Shown: in pieces, positions 1 through 16,020 of the stretch | Layout: the number at the start of each line of letters is the position of its first letter | Position numbering within the stretch: position 1 is the first letter of the stretch | Assembly (NCBI GenBank): GCA_963836185.1 | Contig: CAWIIQ010000002.1 | Location: 224,001-288,000 of the forward strand | Length of the DNA stretch: 64,000 nt | Source: Candidatus Krumholzibacteriia bacterium | GTDB taxonomy: Bacteria > Krumholzibacteriota > Krumholzibacteriia > Krumholzibacteriales > Krumholzibacteriaceae | Direction of reading: 5' to 3' | Program-made: the position numbers and the translations under genes | The notes under the pieces: generated by a model | Seen by the model: only the letters and a program-made list of their open reading frames with translations | Databases searched by the model: none | What the model was told of the DNA's origin: nothing

Positions 1-1547
1 GGAAAGACTTCACTCTCGCGAGAAACTGTCTGGTAAAGGCGCGTATGATCGCATCGGAGATCGCTCCTGATGGGGACCTCGCCGCTGAGGTAACGCGGAA
101 GATCGGTGAACTGGAGATAGTCGAGGGCAATATTCAAAAAGCGATGTACCGTCTTGAGGAGGCAGAGGGGTTAGCGAAGGGGCAGGATGCGCCGCTGGAA
201 CTGGGGCTTGTCTACCGGTCTATGGGAAAGGCCGAGACCGGCCGGGGAAATCTCGACACGGGAAAGATCCTTTTTAAGCGCTCGAAGGACCTGATAAGGA
301 AATCGGGAAGTACCTATGAGCTGGCCAGGACATGTCTCAAATATGCCGAGACCCTGATCTCGTCAAATGGAGCGGGACTGTCGCACGGTATTCCAGGAAA
401 GAAATACACAGATGAACCATGGAGCCTTCTCTGGGAAGCGCGGCACCTGTTCGCCGGGATGCACGCTCAGCACATGGTCGATCGTATCGATTGTCTGCTC
501 GGCAGGGAAGAGCGAGGCAGTACCACACATCCCCGGATCGATGAAACCGCCGTTGCCGGCTCCGGTATGATCGAGGTCGGATTTTCGCTCGATTACAAGG
601 TCTGTGACGGCCTTGTAGCAGTTTCGCCGGTCATGCAGGACGTTTGGGACAGGATCCAGTTTGCGGCCTCCTACAGAGGCACTGTTCTCGTGACTGGAGA
701 GACAGGCACAGGGAAAGAGCTTGTCGCCAGGCTGATCCACAATGCCAGTGACAGGGCCCAGGGTCCGTTTGTCGCGGTCAATTGCGCCGCGATACCTGAC
801 CATCTTTTCGAGAGTGAATTCTTTGGTCACAGGAAAGGGTCGTTTACCGGAGCAGTGATCGACCGTCGGGGCTTCTTCGAGGAGGCCAGCGGAGGAACGC
901 TTTTCCTCGATGAAGTAGGAGAGCTTTCCACACTGCACCAGGCCAAGCTTCTCAGGGTGCTGCAGGAGGGGAAGATCAGGCGGCTGGGAGAGAACATCGA
1001 ACACGAGGTCGATATAAAGCTCGTATCTGCCACGAACCAGGATCTCGGGAGTAAACTCGATGACTCATCGCTGAGAGAGGATTTCTTCTTCAGGATCAAC
1101 GCCGAAAGGATACATATCCCGCCATTGAGGGATCGCAGGGAGGATATAATCCCGTTGATAAGCTGGCGGCTCTGTGGAAATGGAAATGGCAATAACGGCA
1201 GGACGGTGCAGGTCGACCGTGATGTCGTCTCTCTCTTTCAGAAATATCACTGGCCCGGTAACGTCAGGGAGTTGATCTCGATCGCTGACAGGCTGAGCTG
1301 CTTTGCCAATGATTCTCCTATTACGATCGACATGCTGCCTGACAGGATGACGGGAGATTCAACGGTTCTGCCCGAATGGAATCTCCGCCAGTCCGGTGCC
1401 TGCGATCGTCAAAGGCTTGAGAGCGCGATGAGTATATGCAAGGGCAACAAGAGCGCAGCCGCACGCTGGCTCGGGATATCAAGAGGCAAGCTGTACAAGG
1501 AGCTTAAAAAGACAGGCCTGTACAGATTCTACCGCACCGCAACGTGA
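1..1547 (+). CDS. TPR-containing sigma54-dependent enhancer-binding protein (5'-truncated by window)
   Basis: Frame is open from the window start. Helical TPR-like N-terminal part, Walker A GETGTGKE, GSFTGA loop, Walker B LFLDEV, WPGNVREL, C-terminal Fis-type HTH (GNKSAAARWLGISRGKLY). Confidence 0.93.
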   Translation, partial: KDFTLARNCLVKARMIASEIAPDGDLAAEVTRKIGELEIVEGNIQKAMYRLEEAEGLAKGQDAPLELGLVYRSMGKAETGRGNLDTGKILFKRSKDLIRKSGSTYELARTCLKYAETLISSNGAGLSHGIPGKKYTDEPWSLLWEARHLFAGMHAQHMVDRIDCLLGREERGSTTHPRIDETAVAGSGMIEVGFSLDYKVCDGLVAVSPVMQDVWDRIQFAASYRGTVLVTGETGTGKELVARLIHNASDRAQGPFVAVNCAAIPDHLFESEFFGHRKGSFTGAVIDRRGFFEEASGGTLFLDEVGELSTLHQAKLLRVLQEGKIRRLGENIEHEVDIKLVSATNQDLGSKLDDSSLREDFFFRINAERIHIPPLRDRREDIIPLISWRLCGNGNGNNGRTVQVDRDVVSLFQKYHWPGNVRELISIADRLSCFANDSPITIDMLPDRMTGDSTVLPEWNLRQSGACDRQRLESAMSICKGNKSAAARWLGISRGKLYKELKKTGLYRFYRTAT

Positions 1548-1607
1548 CAGATCTTTCTGTCCTGACTTTTCAATATCATCCACATCCTGAATCAGAAAAC
1601 ATGTTCA

Positions 1608-1709
1608 TGTTGTTCATGTCGTGAACAGTCTTGTCTTCCCCTGCAACACTCAATCCCGCAACAGGTTGTCCCCCGTCATGTCCGTTTCCCGGAAACAGCA
1701 TGAACAACA
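1608..1709. promoter_or_regulatory. Candidate enhancer (UAS) sites
   Basis: Palindrome TGTTCA-N5-TGAACA at 1611-1627 and an 11-bp inverted pair TGTTGTTCATG (1608-1618) / CATGAACAACA (1699-1709), about 130-230 bp upstream of a sigma54-like box. Confidence 0.4.
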
Positions 1710-1837
1710 GAGCTGGAAAGGAGCCGCTGGCGCAGGCACATATGGCCGCGCCGCGTACTTTCGTATCGCAATACTTATAAGATGGTTAGGGGAGCGGATG
1801 TGCCGGCCGGCATGATGGATTACGGGCAGTTTCTCTC

Positions 1838-1853
1838 TGGCACGAATGGTGAT
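1838..1853 (+). promoter_or_regulatory. Possible sigma54 promoter (good -24, imperfect -12)
   Basis: TGGCACGAATGGTGAT; the -12 position reads GA instead of GC. It lies downstream of a bEBP gene and upstream of the Cys-rich lipoprotein. Confidence 0.4.
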
Positions 1854-1925
1854 ATTGGTATGTGTATCAAACCGCGTCACGGCGACGCTTTCTGAAAGGC
1901 CGGACCAAATTGGTAAGGTGTTTCG

Positions 1926-2076
1926 AATAAGAACCATCCGCTTTCTACGGTGCCGCTCTGAGTCCCCCCATCGCGCAACCATACCGTAGATAAGGTGGTT
2001 CTTATTTTTTTCTTCTACAGTTGCGCGATTCGAGGAGGCGGTTCCATTGGATCGGTGAGCACGGAAACGGGGGGAC
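1926..2076 (+). ncRNA. Candidate structured 5' leader RNA
   Basis: Complementary segments 1926-1936/1996-2006, 1944-1951/1983-1990, 1970-1979/2020-2029 and 1962-1969/2069-2076; T-run after the first stem. Confidence 0.45.
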
Positions 2077-2101
2077 GAATCACCTTTTACTGGAGGATAA
2101 C

Positions 2102-2785
2102 ATGATATCGAAAGGTTTCTTCTTTCTGTTTCTGTCGCTCATCCTGATCTCAGTCGTTTCGTGCGAGCAGTCGCTCGAACCGTCCGGATCCGATGATGTT
2201 GAGATGTCCCTGGAGGACAGGCTGGAAGTCAGTTACGACGAAACTCAGACCGAAGATGAAATCGCCTCGTTCAGGATCACACCCAGTTGCTCGATATTCG
2301 GTAGGCTGCTGGAGGATAAGGGCTATCATATCCAGCCCGAAGACGCTGCTCACTACAGGGCAGTCGATCCAGCCACAGGAAAGACCGGGCATATGACGAT
2401 GATACCGTGTTCCGTTCCTGGCGATGAATCAAGGATCGCCATGATCAAATACTTCCGCGGTGAGGATGGATATGCTGTCACTGCAGCAGAGTATTTTGAG
2501 GCTGAGGATTTCGAGATAGTCCATCCGCTCGATGAAAGTGCAGGAATATTGCTGCTTGGTGATGACTCCGATCTTGATCTCAAACTCGACCTGCTCGAAC
2601 GGAGTGAGCGTTCCAAGCGTTACTGGCAGTGTGTCGCGACCAAGTTCATGGCCGGGTGTGCCGGGTGCGCTACCGTCTGCTACATCACGGGGCCTGCATG
2701 GGGTGCGTGTACAGCCAAATGCTGCGCCGGTTCCGCTGTCGTAGCTATGGTTGCCTGTGCGGCCACTGTATACCTGGGGTGGTGA
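2102..2785 (+). CDS. Lipoprotein with C-terminal Cys-rich, halocin C8-like putative bacteriocin domain
   Basis: GGAGG RBS before ATG 2102; lipobox VVSC (Cys21); acidic middle region; basic RSERSKR junction; 54-aa hydrophobic tail with 8 Cys ending in LGW. Confidence 0.65.
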   Translation: MISKGFFFLFLSLILISVVSCEQSLEPSGSDDVEMSLEDRLEVSYDETQTEDEIASFRITPSCSIFGRLLEDKGYHIQPEDAAHYRAVDPATGKTGHMTMIPCSVPGDESRIAMIKYFRGEDGYAVTAAEYFEAEDFEIVHPLDESAGILLLGDDSDLDLKLDLLERSERSKRYWQCVATKFMAGCAGCATVCYITGPAWGACTAKCCAGSAVVAMVACAATVYLGW

Positions 2786-3121
2786 GTGATGAAATCATCA
2801 AAACGGATCGTCTATTGTTACCTGTTCTGTTTTCTCCTGATAGTAACGGTCGATCTGCTGAGTTCCGGCGATATGTCCGGTGAAAGGATGTACCTTGTAC
2901 TCATGCCGCTTCTGGCTCTATCGCTCTTTCTGTTCAGCGACTTTACGCCAGAGGGGATCAAAAGGAGGATCAAAGGGTATCGCTGGTCGATAATGGTCCT
3001 GCTGATCGGTATCACGACGAGTCTATTTATAGACAAGACGTTGTCCGCTGGAGTGGTGATACTTGTGAGTTCGTTCACGGCACCGTTTCTACGTATAAGG
3101 AAGTATGCCGATCAGGATTAG
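2786..3121 (+). CDS. Small integral membrane protein (about 4 TM), putative immunity/partner protein
   Basis: Starts immediately after the upstream stop (TGAGTGATG); four hydrophobic stretches with basic ends. Confidence 0.6.
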   Translation: MMKSSKRIVYCYLFCFLLIVTVDLLSSGDMSGERMYLVLMPLLALSLFLFSDFTPEGIKRRIKGYRWSIMVLLIGITTSLFIDKTLSAGVVILVSSFTAPFLRIRKYADQD

Positions 3122-6100
3122 GACTTGAGGCTTTTTACAAAGTCAAAGACCTGCGTTCTCAGCGGCACCTGGAGGTAGGAAGATATCTGTTCAGAATTGT
3201 CGAAAGCCTCGGTTATCTCCTTGAGGGTATTGATAGATTCCCTGCTGTATTTGACCGAGTTGGAGATATCGCCGGCCTGCTTGTAAAGCCGCGCAAGCTC
3301 AAACTGGATCTGCCATGTCCACTCCCTGGTCCCGAATTCTCTGGAGACATCGATAGCCTCCAGCATCGGGGCCAGGGATTTCGAATTATCGTGAACCTCA
3401 CTCAAAGCGATGACGTAACTGTACAGTGGCTTGAGATACCCGCAATTGATCTCCCTGAATATCTTCGCCGCCTGCCTGGCGTAATCACGAGCTATCTCAT
3501 GGTCCCCCATGTGTCGATGTGTGAGGGACAGCTTTAGTAATGCTTCGAGCAAGTCGTCCTTGGCGTTGGCTCCTTTGAAAATGTCGGAAGAAATAAGGGC
3601 ATGATTTATAGCAGTCTTGAGTTCAAGATTGTAGTAGGCTGAATCGGCATGTCTGAGCTCCAAATGTCCCAAGCCAATCTTATTGTTGTATTTATGAATT
3701 GATTCTTTTGATGTTTCTGTGAATTCCTTGTATTTGTCATGATATAGACTCCCCATAAGCAAGAATGCTCGAGCTCCTGTTGACGGAAATGTTGGGGAGA
3801 TCGCCGATACATTATACTTAGCTATATATTGAGATCCTTCAAATATTAAGGCTATTGCTTCAGAGAAATTAGCTATGGATATATGTCCCAAGGCCTTGTT
3901 TGCGAGAAAAACAATCAAGTGAGAATAGGCTTGGTATATCTTTGCCAAATGGCACGCCTTGTCCAGTATGCCAATCTGATCGTTGAATTTACCTTGAATA
4001 TAGTTCAGTCCGGCAAGCCCGCTCATGTGGTCAATGCGGCTAATTTCATCGCAACTGAGTTTGTCTAAAGCTATCATTTTCCCTAAGACTGTGTGGGCAG
4101 TATCATATTCTCCTGTGTAGAATGCTTTAACGTATTTCGAAAAGTAAATTCTATCTGTTGTTCTTAGATCACTTTCGTCAAGAAGGTCGTCTAACTCAAT
4201 ATCGATTGCATTGTACTTTTCTGCATCACCGGAGAATGTGTAATAATACATTGCGTTAGAAATCGCCCTGATATACTGAGCTGGAAGGATATCTTTGGCA
4301 GTTGTGGCAGCTGATTCAAGGAATGAGACATCGTTCAATACTATTCCTAGCGAAATGAGCGCTTCTGATTCGATGATTGCGTTTGAATTATTTCGAGCAA
4401 TATCTAGAGCCCTGTTATAAAAATTAACCGCCTTTTTCGAATTGCCTTTGTAGTATTGTTCGATATATCCCAATCTATTGTAGTACTCTGCTTTAGATTC
4501 TTCATTAGGGGCCATATTAAGCAGATAAGTGTAATTCTCAATGGAATCATCAACATATCCGAGAGTTAGTTCTAAAGGGGCAAGTTTAGAAAGAACAGTG
4601 CTTCTGATTTCTGGTAAATCTTGTGTATCAATCAAACTTTTAAGCGATAGTAATAGGTTAAAGGCTGAATAATATTCGTGCTGTGCCATGTGTTCATCAT
4701 GTGCCTTGATTGTATAACTATATGACTGTTCAATATCTCTGGCTTGAATGAAATGATTAGCTATCATTGGGAAGTTCTCTGGGTCGACCTGAATGGAATA
4801 GTATGCTAGATCTCTGTGAATCGAAGTGGATTGGTCATCTTGTGTGTTTCGAATGAGATAATTTTTAATAATTGGAGATAATAAACGACTTAGATTATTT
4901 TTCGATTCAATCAAGTCTGCTCGCTCAAGGCTATCAATTACAGGTGCAATATCAAAAGACATAAAAGTATTGAGTATATTTGTTTCTATAGGATTGTTAT
5001 GGGCGGAAAGTAACTGTAGGACATATAACTCATCTGTGCTTAATCCAGCAACTATTTGATCTGCCAGATCATCAAAGATCTCTGCGGATTGGTAGGTGCT
5101 TAATTTTTTGTGATTAACAAAATAGGCCCTGCCTGTCTTTGAAATAATGTCGTTTAGTATTAAGAAATTGTAGTAATCGATTATGTATAGTGGAATCCCA
5201 TCTGTAAGCAATAGAATGTCACTATATTCTTTTTTGCTGAATATGTCGGATTCAAACAGTGCAGTAGAAAGTGTTTTTAGCTCGGCATTGTTGAATCCTC
5301 GAATAGGCAAAGAGTAGGCGTTATTGGCAAGAGAGGCTAACTGTGTGTCAAGTGCGTCGCTGTGAGGGTAATCTGTGGCATGGGAAAGAATAACTTTTAC
5401 ATCAGCATTTAGATATTCGATTTCATTGATGAGATGAGTAAGGAATTTCAATGAATCAAGTCCACGACGCTCTATATTAGAAATTGTAATCAGAACTGGC
5501 TGATCTTTTGAAAGGGTATAAATATATTCGATGATGTTGCTATACAATACTCCGAGACTATCTAAATCTCTAGAGTCCTCGTATTTGTTAATGTTGGCTA
5601 CCAATTTGCCATGCTGAACAGAAAGCTTTTTGCGTGAAGTTAATGATAGGTTTGTGGCAATAGAATCGATAATGTTTTGAAGGGTTAGTCTTTCCGGTTG
5701 CGGCTCAATAAAGCTTATAACTTTGTATTTCAAGAGTTGAGCTTTGCTGATCGCTTTTATTAGCAGTGATTGTTTGCCCATCCCAATAGGGCCTTCTAAA
5801 ATAATCGTCCTCTCATGCAAGTCAGCACCCTCAATGAACTGTTCGATTGCTGAGTCAACGCCCTCGCGCAATACATGCTTAGTACTATTGAAATTGTATG
5901 GTATTGACGAGGGTGTGATGATTGAAGCCAGATTCTGTATTGCTTGCGAGGGTGTGGCTGGGCGAAGTGCGATGGATGGATTGGAAAGTCTGACAATATA
6001 CGAGGCAAGATTTCTTGGATGTTCAATCCCAGAATTCTGGAATAGTTGGCTCAGTGCTTCGTATGCAGAACTTAAATAATCATCCGTGAGGTTTGGTGCT

Positions 6101-6702
6101 AGTGGTGTTTCATATTTAAGCAGGCTTTCCATAAGTGTGTGCCCTAGTGCATAAAGGTCACTGCTGGGTGAATAATTTCTGGAAGAGATGATTTCTGGGG
6201 CTAAAAACCTGGGCGTTCCAAATAGTTTGTCGTTGTCTGTAAGTGCGATTGTTGATAATCCAAAATCAACTAAAACAGGACATAAATTACCATCGCCTGC
6301 TATAAGAACATTCTCTGGTTTTATATCTCCATGGATAATATTTTCCCTATTGAGGTAATGAAGTGCTTCGAGAATACCTGTGATTATAGCGGAAGTGGAT
6401 AACACGCGATCGGGAGATTCAAAGAAATCGTTTAGATTGGGGCCATTAATAAAATCCATGGTGAAGTATGAATGCCCCGATTCGCTCTGGCCAAAATCGT
6501 AAACACGAATCAGATTGGGATGATTTAGTGGCGTAAGAGTTGAGAATTCGTTTTCAATAGAAGCAGTTAGTGCTGGTTCAATATGATTCAGGATTTTTAG
6601 GGCAATATTCTTATTGGCCTGAGAGTCAAATGCCTTGAATACTGTCCCAATGCCACCAGATCCTATTAGAGGAGAAATTGCTGTATCTTGAAGGAAATCC
6701 AT
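3118..6702 (-). CDS. Ser/Thr protein kinase - AAA/STAND-like NTPase - TPR protein
   Basis: Hanks kinase motifs GSGGIGTV, IALK, HGDIKPEN, DFG, GTPRFLAPE, SDLYALG; Walker A-like GPIGMGKQS; long helical TPR-like C-terminal half; mostly low GC. Confidence 0.88.
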   Translation of the reverse strand: MDFLQDTAISPLIGSGGIGTVFKAFDSQANKNIALKILNHIEPALTASIENEFSTLTPLNHPNLIRVYDFGQSESGHSYFTMDFINGPNLNDFFESPDRVLSTSAIITGILEALHYLNRENIIHGDIKPENVLIAGDGNLCPVLVDFGLSTIALTDNDKLFGTPRFLAPEIISSRNYSPSSDLYALGHTLMESLLKYETPLAPNLTDDYLSSAYEALSQLFQNSGIEHPRNLASYIVRLSNPSIALRPATPSQAIQNLASIITPSSIPYNFNSTKHVLREGVDSAIEQFIEGADLHERTIILEGPIGMGKQSLLIKAISKAQLLKYKVISFIEPQPERLTLQNIIDSIATNLSLTSRKKLSVQHGKLVANINKYEDSRDLDSLGVLYSNIIEYIYTLSKDQPVLITISNIERRGLDSLKFLTHLINEIEYLNADVKVILSHATDYPHSDALDTQLASLANNAYSLPIRGFNNAELKTLSTALFESDIFSKKEYSDILLLTDGIPLYIIDYYNFLILNDIISKTGRAYFVNHKKLSTYQSAEIFDDLADQIVAGLSTDELYVLQLLSAHNNPIETNILNTFMSFDIAPVIDSLERADLIESKNNLSRLLSPIIKNYLIRNTQDDQSTSIHRDLAYYSIQVDPENFPMIANHFIQARDIEQSYSYTIKAHDEHMAQHEYYSAFNLLLSLKSLIDTQDLPEIRSTVLSKLAPLELTLGYVDDSIENYTYLLNMAPNEESKAEYYNRLGYIEQYYKGNSKKAVNFYNRALDIARNNSNAIIESEALISLGIVLNDVSFLESAATTAKDILPAQYIRAISNAMYYYTFSGDAEKYNAIDIELDDLLDESDLRTTDRIYFSKYVKAFYTGEYDTAHTVLGKMIALDKLSCDEISRIDHMSGLAGLNYIQGKFNDQIGILDKACHLAKIYQAYSHLIVFLANKALGHISIANFSEAIALIFEGSQYIAKYNVSAISPTFPSTGARAFLLMGSLYHDKYKEFTETSKESIHKYNNKIGLGHLELRHADSAYYNLELKTAINHALISSDIFKGANAKDDLLEALLKLSLTHRHMGDHEIARDYARQAAKIFREINCGYLKPLYSYVIALSEVHDNSKSLAPMLEAIDVSREFGTREWTWQIQFELARLYKQAGDISNSVKYSRESINTLKEITEAFDNSEQISSYLQVPLRTQVFDFVKSLKS

Positions 6703-6753
6703 ATCTGTCAGTCATGGAGTAGCGATTCTAGTTTGTATGGGAGAAAAATCAAT

Positions 6754-6784
6754 AAAAAAACCCTCTCCGGGGAGAGGGTTTTTT
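6754..6784. terminator. Bidirectional intrinsic terminator
   Basis: AAAAAAA-CCCTCTCC-GG-GGAGAGGG-TTTTTT. Confidence 0.85.
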
Positions 6785-6807
6785 AAGGTTCAAGTTACGA
6801 GTTAATA

Positions 6808-7356
6808 TTATCCGTTTGGCCAAATCCCATAACCACTGAAATGTTTAAGTTCAGTAACTATGTCCCCATTCTCTACGCGTCCACCGACATCCTGCCAGAT
6901 TCCTGCATCTTCATTGTTCCACAGAGTCCTATAGGAAGTTGCGTTCGAATCGACCTTTGCCAGTGGCAGCGTCATGATGACGTTCTTGTTAAACTCGATG
7001 CCGTGGGGGCCCAGCTCTACCATCGCTTCAGGGTACCTGGGCATGTCGATGGTGATCTCGGTGTCCTCATTGAGGGCTCCGGGCGGGAAGTACAAACTGA
7101 CGTAGCCGTTTGTCACGGTCCCGCCCGTTTCGGCTGAAATCACCATGGAGACGGAGGTTGAGGAGGTCAGTAACATATCTCGACCAGAAGAACCCGCGGA
7201 GGTGGAGAGAACCTGGACGAAAACGGGGTTCTCAACACCGGGCGTAGTGTCGTCCTGTGAGGGGGATACAGGAGAGTATCCACAGCCCATGGCAGCCAGT
7301 ACACTGAGGAAGGTTGAAACGGTGAGGAATTTGTGGGCTATGGTTCGTCCTGACAT
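6808..7356 (-). CDS. ZU5-domain lipoprotein with C-terminal HFS motif
   Basis: AGGAGGT RBS before ATG 7356; lipobox AMGC; ZU5-like pattern (GGTV..VSLYFPPGAL..ELGPHGIEFNKNVIMTLP); ends ELKHFSGYGIWPNG. Confidence 0.72.
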   Translation of the reverse strand: MSGRTIAHKFLTVSTFLSVLAAMGCGYSPVSPSQDDTTPGVENPVFVQVLSTSAGSSGRDMLLTSSTSVSMVISAETGGTVTNGYVSLYFPPGALNEDTEITIDMPRYPEAMVELGPHGIEFNKNVIMTLPLAKVDSNATSYRTLWNNEDAGIWQDVGGRVENGDIVTELKHFSGYGIWPNG

Positions 7357-7416
7357 TTCTCCCACCTCCTTGGGGTCTTTGGTGAACAACTTCTTTCGTT
7401 TCTCACCCTGGTATAA

Positions 7417-7432
7417 GGCAACGCAAGTGCCA
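7417..7432 (-). promoter_or_regulatory. Sigma54 (-24/-12) promoter of the ZU5 lipoprotein gene
   Basis: Minus strand TGGCACTTGCGTTGCC matches TGGCAC-N5-TTGC exactly, 60 bp upstream of the start and just downstream of a bEBP gene. Confidence 0.85.
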
Positions 7433-7704
7433 CGGGCCAAAAGCCGGCACGCAGATGCCGTTCTGGGGAGCGATCATTGTGTCAACTTATGTTGTCTGTC
7501 TGGATTTGTGACTTTGGAACTTGTTGATAGACAAGCAACTACAGGATCTGGAAAAGTCCCGGATCCTGCCTTGAAAAAGTGATCGTTCGTGGAAATAGGC
7601 TGGTACGAAAGCCCCGGCCGAAATGTCGGATTGGGATTATTCCTGAATCTGTTGGGGGAGATTTTCGGACTGGCAGGGGGGTATGCTTGTAAGAGTCAGC
7701 GTTT

Positions 7705-9165
7705 TCAGTCTGTTACAGAAACCGGCTCAAATTCGCCGGTTTTGAGTTTTTTCTTAAGCTCCTGACCGTCTATTCCGTGTTTCTTCATCTTGTATCTCAA
7801 GGTTCCTCGTTCTACCTCAAGAAGGTGGGCTGCGCGGGTTATATTTCCCCCTGTCCTGACGAGCGTCTCGAGGATCACGGCCTCTTCGACCTGGTCGAGA
7901 CTGACACCCTCTGATGGAATATCGATCCTCAGAGTTCCGTTTTCTTTCTTAACCTGGCAGGTTGTTTCTTCCGTTCTGGTCTCGGTGGCTATGGGCAAGT
8001 CAGCTGAACGGATCATTCCTGTCGTGTTCAGAAGAACCGCGCGCTCGATGAGATTGATCAACTCCCGGATGTTTCCAGGCCATGAATACTGCTCGAGAAG
8101 GGTGAACGCATCCTCTGTGAGGGAGATGTCGCCTTTGTTGAGGCGGCGGGAGAACTTTTCTGTGTATGTCTCGGCTATAGGGCGGATATCTTCCTTGCGG
8201 CTGCGAAGGGGCGGAATCACGATCTCGACAACGTTTAGCCTGTAATAGAGATCGGCCCTGAACCGCTTTGTATCCACGTCATCCTTCAAATTCCTGTTTG
8301 TAGCGGAGATCACCCTGACATCTACAGGAAGGAACTGTGTGCCGCTCACTCTCCTTATAGTCCTCGAATCGAGGAACTTGAGGAGCTTTGCCTGGAGGTT
8401 GAAGTCGATCTCGCCTACTTCATCAAGGAAGATCGATCCTCCATTTGCGACCTCGAACAGCCCCATCTTTCTTTCCTTGGCGTCTGTGAAGGCTCCCTTC
8501 TCATATCCGAAGAACTCACTTTCAAGAAGCTTGGAAGGGATCGCGGCGCAGTTTACCTCTATGAGGGGCCCTGAAGATCGAGCGCTTATCTGATGGATAG
8601 CGCTGGCGAGCACTCCTTTGCCGGTGCCGTTTTCGCCCGTGATCATGACCGATGTGCAATCGCTCTTTCCTACCTTGATCGCCAGGGCGATGATTTCCTG
8701 CATGGCCTCACTGACACCTATGATGTCATCGAACCCTTCTGGTTTCGACGTTCTTTCCCTTATGGCTTCATCCCGTTTACGTTTCCCGAGACCGCTGGCG
8801 ATCTGGCTGAGGATAAGGTGGAGGTCCCTGCTCTCGTACGGCATATGGAGCTGGTGTCTTGCGCCCAGCCTCAAGCTGACGTTGTCCTCGTTCCTCAGTC
8901 CCTCCGGTATAAGAAGGATGATCTGGGAAGTGGAATTGTGTCTGTGCCAGTCGATCAGGTTGTCGATATCAGGTGAGATGTCCCGGGTTCCGGCTTCATT
9001 CGTGCCGGCTAATATAAGGACCTGTGGAGCCGATTTCTCTCTTTCCAGAATGAAATCGTTTACGCTGGAGAACTTAGATACTTTCCATCCTGACTCGGCA
9101 CAGTCGTTCTCTACTGTCCCGAGGATATCTGAATGGGAGCATATTATGTCTAGTTCAAGTGACAT
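7705..9165 (-). CDS. NtrC-like sigma54 activator with degenerate (pseudo-)receiver domain
   Basis: GENGTGKG, GAFTDA, IFLDEV, WPGNIREL, Fis HTH. The N-terminal receiver-sized domain lacks the acidic pocket, phospho-Asp and conserved Lys. Confidence 0.92.
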   Translation of the reverse strand: MSLELDIICSHSDILGTVENDCAESGWKVSKFSSVNDFILEREKSAPQVLILAGTNEAGTRDISPDIDNLIDWHRHNSTSQIILLIPEGLRNEDNVSLRLGARHQLHMPYESRDLHLILSQIASGLGKRKRDEAIRERTSKPEGFDDIIGVSEAMQEIIALAIKVGKSDCTSVMITGENGTGKGVLASAIHQISARSSGPLIEVNCAAIPSKLLESEFFGYEKGAFTDAKERKMGLFEVANGGSIFLDEVGEIDFNLQAKLLKFLDSRTIRRVSGTQFLPVDVRVISATNRNLKDDVDTKRFRADLYYRLNVVEIVIPPLRSRKEDIRPIAETYTEKFSRRLNKGDISLTEDAFTLLEQYSWPGNIRELINLIERAVLLNTTGMIRSADLPIATETRTEETTCQVKKENGTLRIDIPSEGVSLDQVEEAVILETLVRTGGNITRAAHLLEVERGTLRYKMKKHGIDGQELKKKLKTGEFEPVSVTD

Positions 9166-9222
9166 TTTTTAAACTGCATTTGTAAAGTCGGTGTTTCAGG
9201 CGTACTGGTTCAGGCTGTTAAC

Positions 9223-9238
9223 TGCAAGATATATGCCT
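9223..9238 (-). promoter_or_regulatory. Probable sigma54 promoter upstream of the activator gene
   Basis: Minus strand AGGCATATATCTTGCA; GG-N10-GC spacing with TTGCA. Confidence 0.55.
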
Positions 9239-9393
9239 CATTACGGGGAATCATGCCTCGCGTGGATATCAGTCGGCATTGAAAGGAGAGGTCTTATTTG
9301 TTATCTTATTAACCGATTGCATCTGTTGACTATCCGCGGAGTTACTATCCGCGGGGTCTCAAAACTAGCAGCCCCTGGATCGAGGTTGATGAT

Positions 9394-11307
9394 ATGCGTG
9401 ATTTGGGAAAGATGTTCCCGCGGATGACTGGATACGCCCTGTTGCTTGCGATTGCTGCATTCGGCCTTTCAGGCTGCAGTGATGATGCGGAGGGTGGTGG
9501 AGAGCCTGTCACCATAAGTTCCGTCACTCCTTCTGAAGCGAGTGCCGGGGATATGGTTACGATAGAAGGTAATGGCTTCAGCGCCGATCCGGCGAAGAAT
9601 GTTGTCAGCTTCTCGGTGGCCGGCGTTTCAAGCTCCTCGGCGAGCAGGGATGCCATTCCTGTCGAAGCGACAAGTACGAGCCTGAGGGTCGAAGTCCCCG
9701 AAGGTTCGTTCACGGGTGATGTGGCGGTAAGATCGCCGTTTCCTATCAGCAGTGGTTCATTCGACTTTACGCCGCCCGGTGTTCCTTCAAACTCTCTGGA
9801 CTTCATGGTCAGGCTGCTCCGCGGTGATGTGGCGAAGATCTACTATGCTGCTTCCGACTACGACCTGGCTGTCAAGACAGGGCTGTCCGGCGAGGAGTAC
9901 ATCCTGATACTCTTCGACAGCGCCACCCCCCCGGACCTGAACATGACTTTCAATTACACGGTCAATAACGATACGCCGTGTTCATCGGCTCCCGCTGCCG
10001 TTGGACCGGATGCCGGTGTTGATAGCGGCGACCAGCCGGACAAGACCGATCCCATGCTTCTGGCGGGGGCTGGAGAGATCACCAGGTCGTTCGAGCGCAA
10101 GAAGTGGGAGGAAGCTCTCGGCCTTCTTCGCGGCGGACCTGTTGATATCGATGTCGACAATACCAGGCCGGCACCATCGCGGTCTTCCTCGCTGGAACCT
10201 CAGGAGCGGCAGTTTTACGTGTTCAGTAATTTCAGTGGAAGCACGGTCAACCCTGACGATTTCACACTCGTTACAGCCGACCTGAAATACGAGGGAACGC
10301 ACACCCTGCTTTACCTCGACCAGACTACACACAGTACCTGCATCAATGACTCAGAGGCGGAGGCCCTTGGCCTGGAGTTCGAGAACAGTATCTATCCGAC
10401 AAATACCTCGAGTTTCGGATCCGAGCCCGATATTAATGGTGACGGCAAGGTCGTCATCCTCCTGACCCCGCTGGTTAACGAACTGACTCCTGATGGCGGC
10501 GCCTCGGCCGGTTATATTGCCGGATTCTTCATGCCGGGCGACCTTCTGCCCGCTTATGTCCCGTCCGGAGCGTCGAACGGGATGGAGATCTACTACTCGA
10601 TGGTACCTGATCCTGGCGGTGAATACGGGAACGTGTACCCCAAGGAGCCGGCGCTCGAGTCGATCAAGGGTGTTACCGCGCACGAGTTCCAGCACATGAT
10701 AATGTTCAATTACCGGGTCCTGATATTCGGGAGCGGTTACAGCGGTGCATACATGGCCGAACTCTGGGTGGATGAGGGACTCGCTCATATTGCCGAGGAT
10801 CTCAACGATCACGACCAGAGTAATATTAACCGCGCGAACCTCTTCCTGAACGATCCTGGTAACGTAACCCTGATCCAGGGGGGAGATGCCCTCACGGAGA
10901 GGGGAGCCAGTTTTCTTTTCTTCAGGTACCTCGGTGACCGGTTCGGCGTAGGAGTCTATTGGGATATCGTTCAGACAAGGAAGACAGGTATCGCCAACAT
11001 AGAAGAGGTCACCGGCTACAGCTTCAAGGAACTGTTTACCGACTGGGCTGCCACTATGTATTTTGAGAGCATGGAGGTGACGCCCGTCGATCCGAAGTAT
11101 TCTTATTCCTCATTTGATATGGCGGCGGTTTTTGAGCCGCTAAGGGTCAGGCAGACCAATATCTGCGGGAGCCCTTACAACGGAGACGTGAAATCGTACG
11201 GGCCGGATTTCCTGCGTCTGGAATTCTCCGGTTCTGACGTCTACGACATAAATATTTCAAGTGCGTTGTTCGGGAGTATGAATGCGGCTCTTATCAGGAC
11301 CCAGTGA
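9394..11307 (+). CDS. Lipoprotein with IPT/TIG domain and M30 (hyicolysin)-like zinc metalloprotease
   Basis: Lipobox LSGC; IPT pattern ISSVTPSEASAGDMVTIEGNGFS; DINGDGKVVIL; HEFQH followed by WVDEGLA. The true start may be a downstream Met. Confidence 0.8.
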   Translation: MRDLGKMFPRMTGYALLLAIAAFGLSGCSDDAEGGGEPVTISSVTPSEASAGDMVTIEGNGFSADPAKNVVSFSVAGVSSSSASRDAIPVEATSTSLRVEVPEGSFTGDVAVRSPFPISSGSFDFTPPGVPSNSLDFMVRLLRGDVAKIYYAASDYDLAVKTGLSGEEYILILFDSATPPDLNMTFNYTVNNDTPCSSAPAAVGPDAGVDSGDQPDKTDPMLLAGAGEITRSFERKKWEEALGLLRGGPVDIDVDNTRPAPSRSSSLEPQERQFYVFSNFSGSTVNPDDFTLVTADLKYEGTHTLLYLDQTTHSTCINDSEAEALGLEFENSIYPTNTSSFGSEPDINGDGKVVILLTPLVNELTPDGGASAGYIAGFFMPGDLLPAYVPSGASNGMEIYYSMVPDPGGEYGNVYPKEPALESIKGVTAHEFQHMIMFNYRVLIFGSGYSGAYMAELWVDEGLAHIAEDLNDHDQSNINRANLFLNDPGNVTLIQGGDALTERGASFLFFRYLGDRFGVGVYWDIVQTRKTGIANIEEVTGYSFKELFTDWAATMYFESMEVTPVDPKYSYSSFDMAAVFEPLRVRQTNICGSPYNGDVKSYGPDFLRLEFSGSDVYDINISSALFGSMNAALIRTQ

Positions 11308-11806
11308 TATTCTGATCGCGCTGCTTCTTCTCGCGGTGACTTCGTGCGCCTCCGCTCCTCCAGCTTCATCTTCCATGGAGCAGTTTCAGCTGGAAGGCTC
11401 CATCCGTGTCGAGGGAGATCAGCCATTCAACAGGGTGATAGTCCTTTCAGACTCTCAGGAGATCAGGTGGAACCTCGATCCGGGCGATCTGGAGGCTGAA
11501 CTTATTCTGCTCGACGGCTATGACGTGACGCTTGTCTGTTCCGGTATTCCTGGTAAAAGGGGCGAGAGGGATGCCCTGGTAGAGAGTTATGTGCTGGTAC
11601 CGCCTGAGGGGATGGTCGCGGTGCTTGGGGATCTTTCGGTCGGGGACGAAACTGTCTTCCTGAATGTCGACGGCAGCAGTTATCGGCTCAACGGGCCCCT
11701 TACAGCCGCGCTGAGGGCTTTCGACGATCACCGAGCCTGGGTATGGGGGATGCCGGGTGATGGTGATATTCTCGACGTAAGCGGCTACGAGGTCCTCGGG
11801 CCGTAG
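11282..11806 (+). CDS. Hypothetical lipoprotein
   Basis: Hydrophobic signal with VTSC lipobox; overlaps the end of the protease gene. Confidence 0.65.
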   Translation: MRLLSGPSDILIALLLLAVTSCASAPPASSSMEQFQLEGSIRVEGDQPFNRVIVLSDSQEIRWNLDPGDLEAELILLDGYDVTLVCSGIPGKRGERDALVESYVLVPPEGMVAVLGDLSVGDETVFLNVDGSSYRLNGPLTAALRAFDDHRAWVWGMPGDGDILDVSGYEVLGP

Positions 11807-11838
11807 AAAAGGGATTTCAACAATAATCGAGGAAACAG

Positions 11839-12253
11839 TCACTGCTGATGTGAGTCAGCCCGGGCCTGATCCCGTCTCTCCTTGACCTCTTCGATGTTCT
11901 TGTAGCGGATGAAGCGGGACATCTCGAGCTGGGTGAAGAACATCGCGAGGCGGTCGTTGCACGGCTCGATCTTCTCACCGAACTTCTCCTTGAGGATGAC
12001 TGGCGATCTCTCCGATGTCGCGCGTGCCGTCGATGTTCTCCCAGACGGTCGCTCCGATATCGTCGAGCGCGATCTTGAAATAGGGGCTTTTCAGACGAGA
12101 GCCGACCATCTTTTTCATTAAGCCGGTCTTGAACCTCGGGCCGAGAATGGTGACGATGCCTTCATCGTCCCTTGTCGACTTCACGGTCTGCTCGGGGATG
12201 AGCTCGAGAAGGTTGATGTCTGGACTGGTCGTCTTTTTCTTTCTTCCGAACAT
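11839..12253 (-). CDS. PqqD-family (RRE-like) protein, frameshifted near 12000
   Basis: IALDDIGATVWENIDGTRDIGEIA continues in another frame as ILKEKFGEKIEPCNDRLAMFFTQLEMSRFI, stop at 11839. Confidence 0.75.
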
Positions 12254-12275
12254 TGTCTGACTATCCCGTCTTCGA

Positions 12276-12310
12276 AAAAGAAGGCCCCGGAGCTCTGCGG
12301 CTCCGGGGCC
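12276..12310 (-). terminator. Intrinsic terminator-like hairpin between the OPT and PqqD-like genes
   Basis: GGCCCCGGAG / CTCCGGGGCC stem followed on the minus strand by TTCTTTTT. Confidence 0.65.
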
Positions 12311-12326
12311 AATAACGCTATATAGA

Positions 12327-14312
12327 CTATTTTGACGCGCTCTTCGCGGGAATCCTGATCAGGATCCATCCGAGAAGGGCGAATACAAGAAGGGCCAGCC
12401 ACGGGTTGCCGCCCTCGATGATCGAGGGAAGGATCGCCTCGCCACCACCGGCGACGACAGTCGCGGCAATGATGATACCCATCAGCGCCTGGCCCGCGAT
12501 GAGGCCCGACGCGAGGAGTATGCCGGTATTGTCGGCCTTCTCCTTGTTGAGGTTGCGCTTCTTGATGTATCCGTCGGCGAACCACTTGATGATCCCGCCG
12601 ATGAAGATCGCGGAGGTCGTGTGGAACGGAAGGTACATGCCGACTGCGATCAGCATCGGCGAAGGAGCGCCGATGAGGATCAGGGCGATCGCGAAGATCG
12701 CTCCCATGATCACGAGCGGCCAGGCCATCTGTCCGGTGATGATACCCTGAGCCAGCATCGCCATCAGTCCGGCCTGCGGCGCGGGAAGGTCGGTTCCGCC
12801 GATACCTCCCGTTGAGGCGTACCCCGTGTGGAGCAGCTGGAGGACCAGGGCCATGACGAACGCGGCCGCGACCACTCCTATGATGCAGCCGAGTTCCATA
12901 GCCCTCGGCGTACCGCCGAGGATATGTCCGGCCTTGAGATCCTGTATGATGTCGCCCGCCACTCCGCTCGAGCAGCAGACAACGGCCGCGACTCCGAGCA
13001 CCGCGGCTACGCCGAACGCTCCCTTCACTCCGACGGCCACCATCAATATCGCCGCCACGATCAATGTAGATAGCGTGAGCCCGGAGATCGGGTTGTTGCT
13101 CGATCCGATCGTTCCTACGAGGAAACCGGCGACCGCGGCGAAGAGGAATCCCGCGATCGTCATTACGATCGCCGAGACAGCCGCTCCGATGATGCTGCCG
13201 CTGAAGTACCAGTAGAGGAAGAAGATCGGTATGACGAGCGCTATGATCCCGATCAGCGTGATCGAGTAGGGGATGTCCTTGTCGATGCGGCTCGTTTCAC
13301 CTTCGGTCTTGACCTTGCCGATCTGGCCGAGGTCCTTGAAGGCCCTCGCTACGCCTGCGCTGAGTGATTTGCGCATCTTGAAGAGTGTATAGAACGCTCC
13401 GACGAGCATTGCGCCTACGGCGAGAGGACGGACCTGCGAGTTCCATACGGCGCCGGTCGTCTCCATCCAGTCGGTGCCCGGGCCGAAGGTGCCGGCGATG
13501 AAGATAAAGAGCGGGGTCATCATCATGTGGCCGAAGACGCCGCCGGCGAATACGATCGCCGCGAGCCTCGGGCCGATGATGTAGCCGACGCCGAGCATCG
13601 CGGGCGAGGCCTCGGGCGACTCGATGAAGATGCCGCCTGTCGGGTTCGACCCGGCCGTTATCGCCTTCAGGTCACTCGTCATCAGCTGGAAGTTCTTTAC
13701 CGTCGGCAGCATCCAGAAATGCTTGACGTAACCCTGGATGAGCTGGAGGCCGAAGCTGTTCTTCAGCATTTCGAGAAGGGCCGCAACGCCTATCATCCCG
13801 AATACGTACTTCGCGCCTGTCGCTCCGCCCTGGCCCGCCTTCACGATCTCTGAGCAGGCGACGCTCTCCGGGAAGGGGAGCGACTTGTCGTCGATCAGGA
13901 CGCGCCTGAGGAAGATCACGAAGAACACGCCGAGGATGCCGCCTACCAGCATGAGGAAGGTGCTTTCCCAGTAGTGGATGTTCTCCCAGATAGGGGCGCC
14001 GGTCTCAGGATTCTTGGCGATCAGGAACGCGGGGATCGTGAAGATCGCTCCGGCGACGACGGCCTCTCCGACAGCAGCCGTGGTACGGCACGTGTTCTCC
14101 TCGAGGATCGATCCCTTGAGCGGTTTGAGCACCGCCATGGCCATCACGGCCGCCGGGAACGTGGCCGCCACAGTCATGCCCGCCACGAGGCCGAGGTAGG
14201 CGTTCGCCGCGCCGAGGACGATCGAGAGTATCGCGCCGAACACGATCGCCGGCAGCGTAAACTCCTTCATCTTCGTTTCAGCGGACACATATGGTTTGAA
14301 CTCTTCGGCCAT
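12327..14312 (-). CDS. OPT family oligopeptide transporter
   Basis: AANAYLGLVAGMTV, LPFPESVAC, GSSNNPISG, QDLKAGHILGGTP, LPAPQAGLM; many TM helices. Confidence 0.95.
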   Translation of the reverse strand: MAEEFKPYVSAETKMKEFTLPAIVFGAILSIVLGAANAYLGLVAGMTVAATFPAAVMAMAVLKPLKGSILEENTCRTTAAVGEAVVAGAIFTIPAFLIAKNPETGAPIWENIHYWESTFLMLVGGILGVFFVIFLRRVLIDDKSLPFPESVACSEIVKAGQGGATGAKYVFGMIGVAALLEMLKNSFGLQLIQGYVKHFWMLPTVKNFQLMTSDLKAITAGSNPTGGIFIESPEASPAMLGVGYIIGPRLAAIVFAGGVFGHMMMTPLFIFIAGTFGPGTDWMETTGAVWNSQVRPLAVGAMLVGAFYTLFKMRKSLSAGVARAFKDLGQIGKVKTEGETSRIDKDIPYSITLIGIIALVIPIFFLYWYFSGSIIGAAVSAIVMTIAGFLFAAVAGFLVGTIGSSNNPISGLTLSTLIVAAILMVAVGVKGAFGVAAVLGVAAVVCCSSGVAGDIIQDLKAGHILGGTPRAMELGCIIGVVAAAFVMALVLQLLHTGYASTGGIGGTDLPAPQAGLMAMLAQGIITGQMAWPLVIMGAIFAIALILIGAPSPMLIAVGMYLPFHTTSAIFIGGIIKWFADGYIKKRNLNKEKADNTGILLASGLIAGQALMGIIIAATVVAGGGEAILPSIIEGGNPWLALLVFALLGWILIRIPAKSASK

Positions 14313-14589: not shown

Positions 14590-16020
14590 TTGAAGAACGC
14601 GATAACCGAATACCTCGGGATTCTCTGCGGCGCTTGCGGAGCGTCGACTGCCCGCCTGCGTTTTTATTCCGGTGAGACAGGCTCGCAAGAACCGATAGTG
14701 GAGATTTGTGGAGGTGTTGACGCAGTTCAGGGCATGGAACTGGCGCTGAGGGAATCGGCCGCGTTTGTCGAGGGTTTCGGGGTCTGGCGGATGGACCGCA
14801 GCAGTTACGGCAGCGAGTGGCGGCTCGAACGGCGGCTCGACGGCATGTCTGTCTCACTCGACCTTGAGATGAACGAGAGCTCGCCATCGTTTGTCTCCAG
14901 GAGGCTGTCGGCCGCCGGGGAACTGCTCGGTCTGCTCGAACAGCTGATACCACTGGTCGAGTATCCGGTATCAGGCCCTGAGACATCCGGAGGGGCGGCA
15001 GCCGGAGGGAGCCGCCCTTTCGACCCTCCGATCATCGGGATCTCTCCCTCGATCGTCTCTCTCAGGGATGATGTCAGGAAGGTAGCGGCCGGGGAGATCC
15101 CCGTTCTTGTATGCGGGGAGAGTGGGACGGGGAAGGAACTCGTCGCGCGGAACATCCATTCGCTCGGGCCGAGAGAAGGCGGACCGTTCATCGCGGTCAA
15201 CTGCCTCGAGATGCCGGAAGGCCTTTTGCAGGGTGAACTGTTTGGAAGCGTCAGAGGTGCCTATACGGGAGCTGACCGTGACCGAGAGGGCCTGATCGAG
15301 GCGTCCGGGGGAGGGATCTTCTTTCTCGACGAGATTGGAGAGCTTCCCATGCATCTCCAGGCGGCGCTTCTTCGCGTCCTGCAGGAAAAGGAGGTCCGCA
15401 GGCTCGGAGAGGGCAGGAGCAGGAAGGTCGATGTCCGGTTCATCTTCGCGACCAATCGTGATCTCGAGGAACTCGTCCGTTCGGGAAGCTTCAGGGAGGA
15501 CCTCTATTTCAGATTGAACGCCGTGAAACTTTATATCCCGCCCCTGAGAGCGAGAAGCGAGGATATTCCGGTCCTGGCAGCGAGGTTTCTCGGTGAATCG
15601 TCCCGCCGGATGAGCGGCTGTTCGATGTCGATCACTGCCGGAGCCCTGTCGAGGCTCGTCGGCCACGTGTGGCCGGGGAATGTACGCGAGATGCGAAACG
15701 AGATCGAAAGGGCTGTGACGATGAATCCCGGCGCCAGGAGGATCACCGCTTCGATGCTCGAGATCCCGGAGAAGCGAAAGGGGATCCTGCCCGTCAACGA
15801 TTCAGGTTTTAAGGCGGCAACGATGCCCGAAGCTGTATTGGCGCTCGAACGGAAGATGATCGTAAGGGCGCTTGAGGGATTCGGCGGGAACAGGACTCGT
15901 ACGGCGAAGGCCCTGGGGATCACCCGCCAGGGCCTTCTGAAGAAACTCAAGAGAATGTGTATCGATCCGGATATATTCCGTGACAATCGATCTATCTCAG
16001 TAGAACAGCCTTCCGCGTGA
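14590..16020 (+). CDS. Sigma54-dependent Fis-family activator
   Basis: GESGTGKE, GAYTGA, FFLDEIGE, WPGNVREM, HTH GNRTRTAKALGITRQGL; TTG start uncertain. Confidence 0.9.
   Translation: MKNAITEYLGILCGACGASTARLRFYSGETGSQEPIVEICGGVDAVQGMELALRESAAFVEGFGVWRMDRSSYGSEWRLERRLDGMSVSLDLEMNESSPSFVSRRLSAAGELLGLLEQLIPLVEYPVSGPETSGGAAAGGSRPFDPPIIGISPSIVSLRDDVRKVAAGEIPVLVCGESGTGKELVARNIHSLGPREGGPFIAVNCLEMPEGLLQGELFGSVRGAYTGADRDREGLIEASGGGIFFLDEIGELPMHLQAALLRVLQEKEVRRLGEGRSRKVDVRFIFATNRDLEELVRSGSFREDLYFRLNAVKLYIPPLRARSEDIPVLAARFLGESSRRMSGCSMSITAGALSRLVGHVWPGNVREMRNEIERAVTMNPGARRITASMLEIPEKRKGILPVNDSGFKAATMPEAVLALERKMIVRALEGFGGNRTRTAKALGITRQGLLKKLKRMCIDPDIFRDNRSISVEQPSA

Follow-up and report, generated by a model that had tools for sequence, protein, structure and literature searches.

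In pherotype cassettes such as comQXP and agr, signal and receptor vary as one block whose boundaries lie between conserved flanks. Polymorphism of comQXP has been described (PMC4408185). Peptide-signalling systems of the RRNPP type join a Sec-exported propeptide of 10–100 amino acids (aa), whose mature form is taken up again and bound, to a receptor of 250–500 aa that carries tetratricopeptide repeats (TPRs) and is encoded by an adjacent gene, often with an oligopeptide transporter nearby (PMC10075063). In MAIN domains, which sit between a large N-terminal cargo and a C-terminal wall anchor, cleavage of an HF|S bond has been shown; the MAIN and GAIN fragments stay associated until they are separated by force, and the MAIN report gives no signalling role for the C-terminal fragment (bioRxiv 10.64898/2026.05.12.724683). 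Among regulatory RNAs, the sigma54-dependent small RNA (sRNA) GlmY is encoded beside the gene of GlrR, the bacterial enhancer-binding protein (bEBP) that activates it, GlmZ activates by opening a leader hairpin (PMC4152352), and NfeR1 pairs with the mRNA of the operon of its own regulator, NtrBC (PMC10746234). Here we describe a locus in an uncultured Krumholzibacteriales genome (G000) that touches on each of these systems. It occupies the start of a window of 64,000 nucleotides (nt; G000:C2:224001-288000) and the sequence just upstream, and it consists of two conserved units and a slot for optional cargo. Unit A comprises a predicted exported protein with an invariant PGEDPH motif, a TPR-bEBP and a predicted sRNA; unit B comprises a ZU5-like lipoprotein, a Ser/Thr kinase with TPRs and a pseudo-receiver bEBP. 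On the reading that we prefer, to which we give even chances, these are two sigma54 peptide-signalling units, in which the tail of the ZU5 lipoprotein is read by the kinase-TPR protein and the PGEDPH protein controls a TPR activator that drives the sRNA.

As in RRNPP systems, the gene of a small protein, here predicted to be exported, adjoins that of a cytoplasmic TPR regulator, and both precursor-receptor pairs are neighbours with TPRs in the receptor. The precursors (121 and 182 aa) and receptors (818 and about 1200 aa) are larger than the RRNPP sizes, and the locus further differs in that output would pass through a sigma54 AAA+ domain or a Ser/Thr kinase, that the host does not belong to the Bacillota and that the motif of unit A is invariant. 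The lipoprotein shares with MAIN, GAIN and ZU5 domains a β-sandwich with HFS before the last strand (bioRxiv 10.64898/2026.05.12.724683; PMC3482391). Unlike the MAIN proteins, with their large N-terminal cargo and C-terminal surface anchor, it is anchored by an N-terminal lipid, has 182 residues and ends nine residues past the site, so that the whole C-terminal fragment is a variable peptide (7–15 residues among homologues). As in a pherotype cassette, conserved flanks enclose a single diverging block made up of the signal-coding end and the receptor body; in contrast to comQXP and agr, the receptor would be a cytoplasmic Hanks kinase with TPRs in place of a membrane histidine kinase, processing would be autocatalytic, and matched signal-receptor specificity was not detected in 15 loci. 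The RNA, finally, differs from GlmY, GlmZ and NfeR1 in that there is no histidine kinase, the input is a TPR region, a single RNA has two predicted pairing arms, and no Rfam family covers it.

Organization and conservation of the locus

Co-occurrence was counted over 61 genomes, many of them fragmented assemblies, and the surroundings of the ZU5 gene over 62 loci of the same type (at least 44% identity, not de-duplicated). Gene order is conserved through the order Krumholzibacteriales, whose members are uncultured and come from sediment. The ZU5 gene was found in 40 of the 61 genomes, the kinase gene in 25 (E<=1e-40), the gene of the exported PGEDPH protein in 32, the sRNA in 35, at a single locus in each, and the pair formed by a Cys-rich gene and a membrane protein gene in 11. 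Wherever there was enough sequence, the kinase gene comes next after the ZU5 gene (38 of 38 loci), and a bEBP gene precedes the ZU5 gene in 56 of 58; the initial annotation of this DNA had named a lack of co-occurrence in other genomes as a refutation, and the proposal passed this test. The ZU5 and kinase genes are still paired in distant genomes (L038, L073, L075, L155-L157), but convergently. In several distant loci (L038:9549-16674, L039:5549-10123, L075, L155) a small exported protein, a large TPR-bEBP and the kinase are encoded in the same direction, with the ZU5 gene convergent, and G048 holds several copies of the ZU5 gene.

Units A and B are neighbours in most genomes of the family. 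In G015, however, 220 kb separate the two halves of the locus, and in G038 the halves fall on different contigs; the slot between the RNA and the kinase gene is empty in G030 and G027 and holds other genes in G028 and G021. Because the halves separate and the content of the slot varies, the locus is two conserved units plus a cargo slot, not one circuit. The initial annotation had proposed a single circuit in which a lipoprotein peptide and the kinase-TPR receptor drive two activators and a bacteriocin. The adjacency of the units in most of the family fits that model, as do sites complementary to the sRNA loop in the leader of the Cys-rich gene in this genus. We nevertheless think it very unlikely: the units come apart as described, the Cys pair is present in only 11 of 61 genomes, the likely promoter of the TPR-bEBP leads into an RNA with its own terminator that is found in 35, this bEBP has a partner gene of its own, and no halocin-C8 model matches the Cys protein.

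The individual genes that had been listed are all at their places, with starts corrected to 2102 for the Cys gene and 7356 for the ZU5 gene. In place of two bracketing activators, five bEBP genes lie inside about 22 kb, in a genome with rpoN, about 20 bEBPs and 32 intergenic sigma54-type boxes. The absence of a histidine kinase was borne out by a Pfam scan, which detected no histidine-kinase domain in 22 neighbouring proteins.

The ZU5 lipoprotein and its C-terminal tail

The central gene of unit B (6808..7356, minus strand) encodes a 182-aa lipoprotein with the lipobox LAAMGC and a ZU5/GAIN fold. Its match to Pfam ZU5 is above cut-off, and an AlphaFold2 model built from 71 sequences is a β-sandwich in which HFS (H172-F173-S174) stands between the last two strands (165-172 and 175-177). 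When the model was compared by Foldseek, the ZU5 domains of ankyrin (E 1.8e-5) and UNC5b (E 2.3e-4) ranked ahead of GAIN domains (CD97, E 8.9e-3). H172, F173 and S174 are invariant in the 71 aligned lipoproteins, and the motif is present in 84 of 88 homologues, the other four sequences being without the end. From this placement we predict that the lipoprotein cleaves itself at HF|S and releases a nine-residue tail, here SGYGIWPNG (6811-6837, minus strand). A modelled fold, the site of self-cleaving domains and a hypervariable tail are thus what stands of the processed-lipoprotein signal in the initial annotation, with the processing predicted.

The tails are as variable as the site is fixed. 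There are 79 distinct tails among 84 proteins, with a length of nine residues in 59 of the 84 and a range of 7–15; they take the form S-x-Y-G followed by about five free residues, and endings recur across lineages. Among the 22 closest homologues the last five residues are 30% identical, as against 82% for the core. The tail could instead be the unconstrained end of a structural lipoprotein beside a recombining gene, in a regulatory cluster that has no peptide signalling. That explanation would account for a nonsynonymous divergence of the tail (pN) close to the synonymous one (pS) and for the lack of correlation between tails and TPRs (below). It is highly improbable in our estimate, given the invariant HFS, the fixed S-x-Y-G start, the prevailing length of nine, the endings shared across lineages and a ZU5-kinase pairing that survives rearrangement. 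We continue with the reading of the tail as a signal.

The kinase-TPR protein and the variable block

The neighbouring gene (3118..6715, minus strand; open frame from 6702) encodes a protein of about 1200 aa with a Ser/Thr kinase domain, a degenerate NTPase part and a TPR region (TPR match, E 3e-12). The kinase domain (Pkinase, E 1e-38) conserves the Gly loop, Lys, HxD, DFG and APE and is of the non-RD type. A search of the Atlas with the C-terminus of the protein returned generic TPR clusters only. Upstream of the gene lie an intrinsic terminator that follows the ZU5 gene (6755-6784, minus strand), conserved in congeners, and a sigma70-like promoter (6725-6752, minus strand), although single consensus matches of this kind were near chance level in the scan.

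Comparison with congeners sets most of this gene apart from its surroundings: residues 1-1080 of the kinase protein are 25-77% identical, the last 115 aa are 75-95% identical, and the flanking bEBPs are 72-91% identical. DNA identity begins to drop about 50 codons ahead of the ZU5 stop codon, and the edges of the variable block lie near 6960 and 3580, so that the block (3580..6960) takes in the last ~50 ZU5 codons with the tail, the terminator and kinase codons 1 to ~1070. Synonymous divergence is 0.75-0.81 inside the block versus 0.36-0.55 outside, and the GC content at third codon positions is 0.3-0.45 versus 0.7; synonymous sites within it are thus saturated and AT-rich, and those beyond it are like the rest of the host genome. 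By analogy with pherotype loci, the profile is that of a signal-plus-receptor cassette.

NTPases of the STAND/Avs type have a Walker A motif with GK[S/T] and an acidic Walker B. The NTPase part seen by the initial annotation is present, but its motifs depart from this pattern: in each of the 10 full-length copies the Walker A reads GxxGxGK followed by K, R or Q, and the Walker B is degenerate. These observations bear on another explanation of unit B, namely self/non-self or anti-invader surveillance in place of density sensing, with the fast-changing kinase-NTPase-TPR protein as an NLR-like sensor and the co-varying tail as an identity tag or inhibitor. The architecture is indeed STAND-like, the sensor is AT-rich with saturated divergence in every genome compared, and the contigs of relatives often break within the kinase gene. 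The gene is, however, single-copy, holds a fixed core position across the order and is tied to a sigma54 activator; besides the degenerate NTPase motifs, PADLOC matches were restricted to the kinase domain, and a search of viral contigs turned up no ZU5 relative. A surveillance role is therefore unlikely in our view, and we retain that of a receptor for the ZU5 tail.

The pseudo-receiver activator and sigma54 boxes of unit B

The third gene of unit B (7705..9165, minus strand) encodes a 486-aa bEBP with a GAFTDA loop. It has no match to Response_reg, and alignment with four canonical receivers of the same genome showed that, in all 39 orthologues, the phospho-Asp column is S, A or V and the other acidic and Lys positions are unconserved. 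The residues of an NtrC-type response regulator are thus lacking, and the receiver is degenerate, as had been noted. The properties of sigma54 activators are otherwise in place in the bEBPs of both units, which have AAA+ domains with GAFTGA-type loops (GSFTGA in the TPR-bEBP and GAFTDA here), Walker motifs and a helix-turn-helix (HTH).

A sigma54 box (TGGCAC-N5-TTGC; 7416..7432, minus strand) lies in front of the ZU5 gene. Of 51 upstream regions, 48 have this box as their top-ranking site, at a nearly constant distance, and in 34 it scores at least 10 of 13, versus 3.4% of shuffles. The box of the pseudo-receiver bEBP itself (GGCAT-N5-TTGC; 9222..9238, minus strand) recurs at a near-fixed distance in all 39 regions, with at least 10 of 13 in 25 of them versus 3.2% of shuffles. 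Both boxes had been called earlier together with a third, assigned as probable to the Cys gene; all three are real, but what the third directly fronts is a structured RNA with a terminator. Comparison of the regions ahead of the ZU5 and pseudo-receiver bEBP genes gave no evident enhancer motif in common. Canonical boxes (score of at least 10) were absent before the exported-protein gene (0 of 13), the Cys gene (0 of 11) and a TIG-domain lipoprotein gene next to unit B (0 of 35).

The exported PGEDPH protein and the TPR-bEBP of unit A

Unit A begins upstream of the window with a sigma70-type promoter at about C2:222577-222606 and a gene (C2:222706-223071, plus strand) for the 121-aa predicted exported protein, followed in this genome after a gap of 19 nt by the TPR-bEBP gene (G000:C2:223091-225547, plus strand), which starts about 910 bases upstream of the window and has its 3' part at 1..1547. 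The 818-aa TPR-bEBP has a TPR region (TPR_12, E 1e-22), a sigma54 AAA+ domain with a GSFTGA loop and a Fis HTH. The exported protein has, by inspection, a basic N-terminus, a hydrophobic stretch and a near-invariant A31. PGEDPH is invariant in 23 aligned proteins, which were picked by that motif (the G004 copy is broken), and an intact TPR-bEBP reading frame follows 23 of 24 motif proteins.

An invariant motif also suits the idea that both exported proteins, instead of carrying signals between cells, report on the envelope of their own cell, such as export failure, proteolysis or mechanical stress, the TPR proteins binding them when they are mis-sorted or released. Such a role would agree with the invariance of PGEDPH across families, with the single operon of exported protein and activator, and with MAIN/GAIN fragments that remain associated until force parts them. 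It leaves unexplained a hypervariable tail that is exchanged together with its receptor, and we hold it to be quite unlikely. Control of the TPR activator by a PGEDPH signal remains our preferred interpretation of this gene pair.

Related arrangements were seen elsewhere. A second module in G001 encodes a 115-aa exported protein and a 783-aa TPR-bEBP, divergent from three cargo genes, one AT-rich and for a lipoprotein of 284 aa, the others for a membrane protein of 84 aa and a product of 196 aa; G006 has the cargo of this second module without the regulator (L016:2750-8060 and L014:5647-7608). In G004 (L018, G004:C91:2557-6657) the exported-protein and Cys genes are broken, and the RNA and TPR-bEBP appear intact. 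Elsewhere in this genome (G000:C1:968535-973166) a 1543-aa protein with a degenerate N-terminal region, an AAA-like motif, TPRs, a GAF domain and sigma54 domains looks like a kinase-TPR protein fused to a GAF-bEBP.

A predicted small RNA with a sigma54-type promoter

Downstream of the TPR-bEBP gene lies a palindromic enhancer-like site, TGTTCA-N5-TGAACA (1611..1627), the only perfect intergenic copy in the genome, and a second, degenerate site of this type (1690-1706). A sigma54-type box with a variant -12 element (TGGCAC-N5-GTGAT; 1838..1855, plus strand) follows and precedes a predicted sRNA of about 150 nt (1863..2010, plus strand), which is composed of a 5' pairing arm (1863-~1895), a two-helix 3' hairpin (1928-2006) with a C-rich loop GUCCCCCC (1962-1969), and a U-tract terminator. 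A box was found upstream of 26 of 28 hits to the RNA hairpin. The fold has a z-score of -4.1 and beats 200 of 200 shuffles; in an alignment of 24 sequences 97.8% of cells are paired and 4 of 17 pairs have two-sided changes, a count that kinship inflates. A conserved reading frame in the element is unlikely because the distance from box to hairpin ranges from 30 to 91 nt. No Rfam covariance model matched 1863-2010 up to E 1, and the element also occurs in genomes that do not have the Cys pair. Three more intergenic sigma54 boxes with a variant -12 (TGAT/TGTT) were noted at G000:C2:181212, C2:381590 and C1:244958, and these might precede other small RNAs.

Predicted pairings of the sRNA

The 5' end of the sRNA (arm 1) shows complementarity to the opening ~35 nt of the unit A operon leader (C2:222615-222645), and both sides are lineage-specific in sequence. 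Leader pairs were compared after L211 had been dropped and L153, L196 and L208-L210, which have no upstream gene, had been left out. A z-score of -2 or below was obtained in 18 of 29 cognate pairs, and cognate pairs outperformed cross-genus pairs (one-per-genus permutation, 13 genera, p 0.0002-0.0024). Since the leader segment in this genus also pairs over the start codon, we slightly favour feedback by displacement and activation over the alternative.

The second arm is the loop, whose C-tract has six invariant C and matches GGGGGGAC, a G-tract in the gene of a neighbouring bEBP. In the ~650-aa TPR-bEBP orthologues the Gly codon of this tract is GGG in 24 of 24, as against 66 of 267 Gly codons (25%) elsewhere in the same stretches, and GGG is kept even where the preceding residue changes. 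Among 3160 called genes, only 5 have the match close to their start, and the neighbouring bEBP and the Cys gene are two of these. In this genus the neighbouring bEBP (C2:217673-218683, L001:11673-12683, plus strand) is shortened to 336 aa; the TPR part is lost, and the G-tract (C2:217627-217634) is retained upstream of the gene (3 of 3 checked). Compensating changes are visible in G045 and G028 and not in G024 and G044, and the G-tract may have another role at the RNA level. A genome-wide duplex scan by itself singled out no loop target. Pairing of the C-rich loop with the ribosome-binding site of the exported protein was considered as well and rejected (energies of -11 to -21). Two stretches complementary to the loop (2020-2029 and 2069-2076) also lie in the leader of the Cys gene (2020..2076, plus strand) and are similar in all seven loci of this genus.

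The Cys-rich lipoprotein and its membrane partner

The slot between the units is occupied here by a gene (2102..2785, plus strand) for a 227-aa Cys-rich lipoprotein, an optional cargo in which a β-sheet domain at the N-terminus is followed by a hydrophobic, Cys-rich helical hairpin at the C-terminus, and by a gene (2789..3121, plus strand) for a 110-aa hydrophobic membrane protein, whose translation is coupled to that of the Cys gene at all loci examined. Eight Cys are invariant in the last 52 aa of the lipoprotein, which belongs to a wider set of ~240-aa lipoproteins (44 hits, 16 of them read). Like halocin C8 and its bacterial relatives, it is an exported precursor in the range of ~230-280 aa that has an N-terminal domain and ends in a hydrophobic, Cys-rich peptide (bioRxiv 10.64898/2026.07.27.741052). 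It differs from them in being a lipoprotein, in its Cys spacing with GP-[WY], in the separate downstream membrane gene and in the lack of a C8 model hit: the halocin_C8 and Gpos_C8 models matched neither 24 aligned members (E<=5) nor 30 distant relatives, on the assumption that NCBIfam includes these TIGRFAM models. Foldseek gave no structural match at E<=0.001, the best match by VIA (Z 7.1) covered the helical hairpin only, and an Atlas feature lead (0.80) pointed to a cluster with 17% Gpos_C8-like members. By analogy, a toxin plus immunity reading of the pair is plausible, with the 110-aa protein as the candidate immunity protein.

Neighbouring genes

Beyond unit B, genes for a lipoprotein with a TIG domain and an HExxH motif (9394..11307, plus strand; weak metallopeptidase matches), a 174-aa lipoprotein, a PqqD-like protein and an OPT-family oligopeptide transporter (12327..14312, minus strand) span 9394-14312 and accompany the unit in most loci; they are possible processing and import parts. 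A further bEBP of 476 aa with an unclassified N-terminal domain (14590-16020) is kept beside the OPT gene, and a multiheme cytochrome-like protein with a C-terminal FlgD/Por-type sorting domain is encoded at 15992-17728. On the other side, a GAF-bEBP gene (C2:220496-222145, minus strand) lies upstream of unit A.

Discussion

In the mechanism that we propose for unit B, the lipoprotein would cleave itself at HF|S and its nine-residue tail would be read by the adjacent kinase-TPR protein. Since the pseudo-receiver bEBP cannot be phosphorylated on Asp, the kinase would switch it, either via Ser/Thr phosphorylation or through the conserved last 120 residues of the kinase protein. The activator would then fire both its own promoter and the ZU5 promoter, which would close an autoinduction loop, and the joint change of tail and receptor as one block would create strain-specific signal types. 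In unit A the operon would be read from the sigma70 promoter, and the TPR activator would be under the control of the exported PGEDPH protein. This activator would bind at both TGTTCA-N5-TGAACA sites and so likely turn on the sRNA from its variant sigma54 promoter. The sRNA in turn would feed back on the leader of its own operon and pair with the G-tract in the mRNA of the neighbouring activator. The Cys/membrane pair would best be placed under unit A and not under the kinase, because it lies behind the RNA terminator in some lineages and has sites for the sRNA loop in this genus.

A number of observations weigh against this interpretation. For unit B, the frame of the kinase gene is broken near 6667 in this assembly, and the N-terminus shared with relatives begins at 6715, in a different frame from the long open frame; the break is either an assembly error or a real lesion. 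With phylogeny removed, similarity of the tails does not follow that of the TPRs (partial r -0.03, p 0.56; 15 loci, TPRs with ~29% mean identity); the sole region with a signal is the kinase domain adjoining the tail (r 0.25, p 0.016, uncorrected across nine regions). The near-identical tails of G003 and G038 stand beside TPRs that are 23% identical, and the identical tails of L045 and G006 go with no extra kinase identity over the parts compared (G006 is without residues 644-971). The tail lies within the saturated block (tail pN 0.59, pS 0.68), so its variability may reflect hitchhiking or lost constraint. Several loci, such as L046, L128, L133 and L141, have no OPT transporter, and import across two membranes is only proposed.

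For unit A, PGEDPH, being invariant, gives no information on kin, and the -12 element of the sRNA promoter does not have the canonical GC. Eleven of the 29 pairs show no leader pairing, among them every tested member of five genera; GC-rich windows elsewhere in this genome exceed the cognate leader in raw pairing energy; and a block at the sRNA site has no larger effect on the opening of the start region (3.1 kcal/mol) than a control block (3.9 kcal/mol). Covariation between the loop and its target is weak (seed p 0.014, energy p 0.41; 22 related genomes).

Our search of the literature found no description of these units, although the sigma54 query, swamped by general papers, is a weak test and the supplements of the MAIN and C8 preprints could list such proteins. 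Possibly new are a kinase-TPR partner in one block with the tail, an RNA with two complementarities and the signal-making step. A fuller picture is tentative, and we lean against it as a whole: a self-cleaving GAIN-like lipoprotein would be the source of a polymorphic peptide, the counterpart in trans of the tethered agonist of adhesion G-protein-coupled receptors, and a co-swapped kinase-TPR receptor would switch a pseudo-receiver activator; beside it, an invariant peptide channel would lead to a two-armed sRNA linking several sigma54 activators and a bacteriocin-like gene in a single network free of histidine kinases.

Peptide signalling through cytoplasmic TPR receptors has been described for Gram-positive bacteria, and bacterial GAIN-like domains have been described as release devices whose C-terminal fragment is not known to have a role. 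If the proposed mechanism is true, this locus unites TPR peptide signalling with GAIN-like release, and in the Krumholzibacteriales a peptide and a Ser/Thr kinase would replace the two-component input to sigma54 activators; to this the locus would add an order-wide sRNA with two specific predicted pairings.

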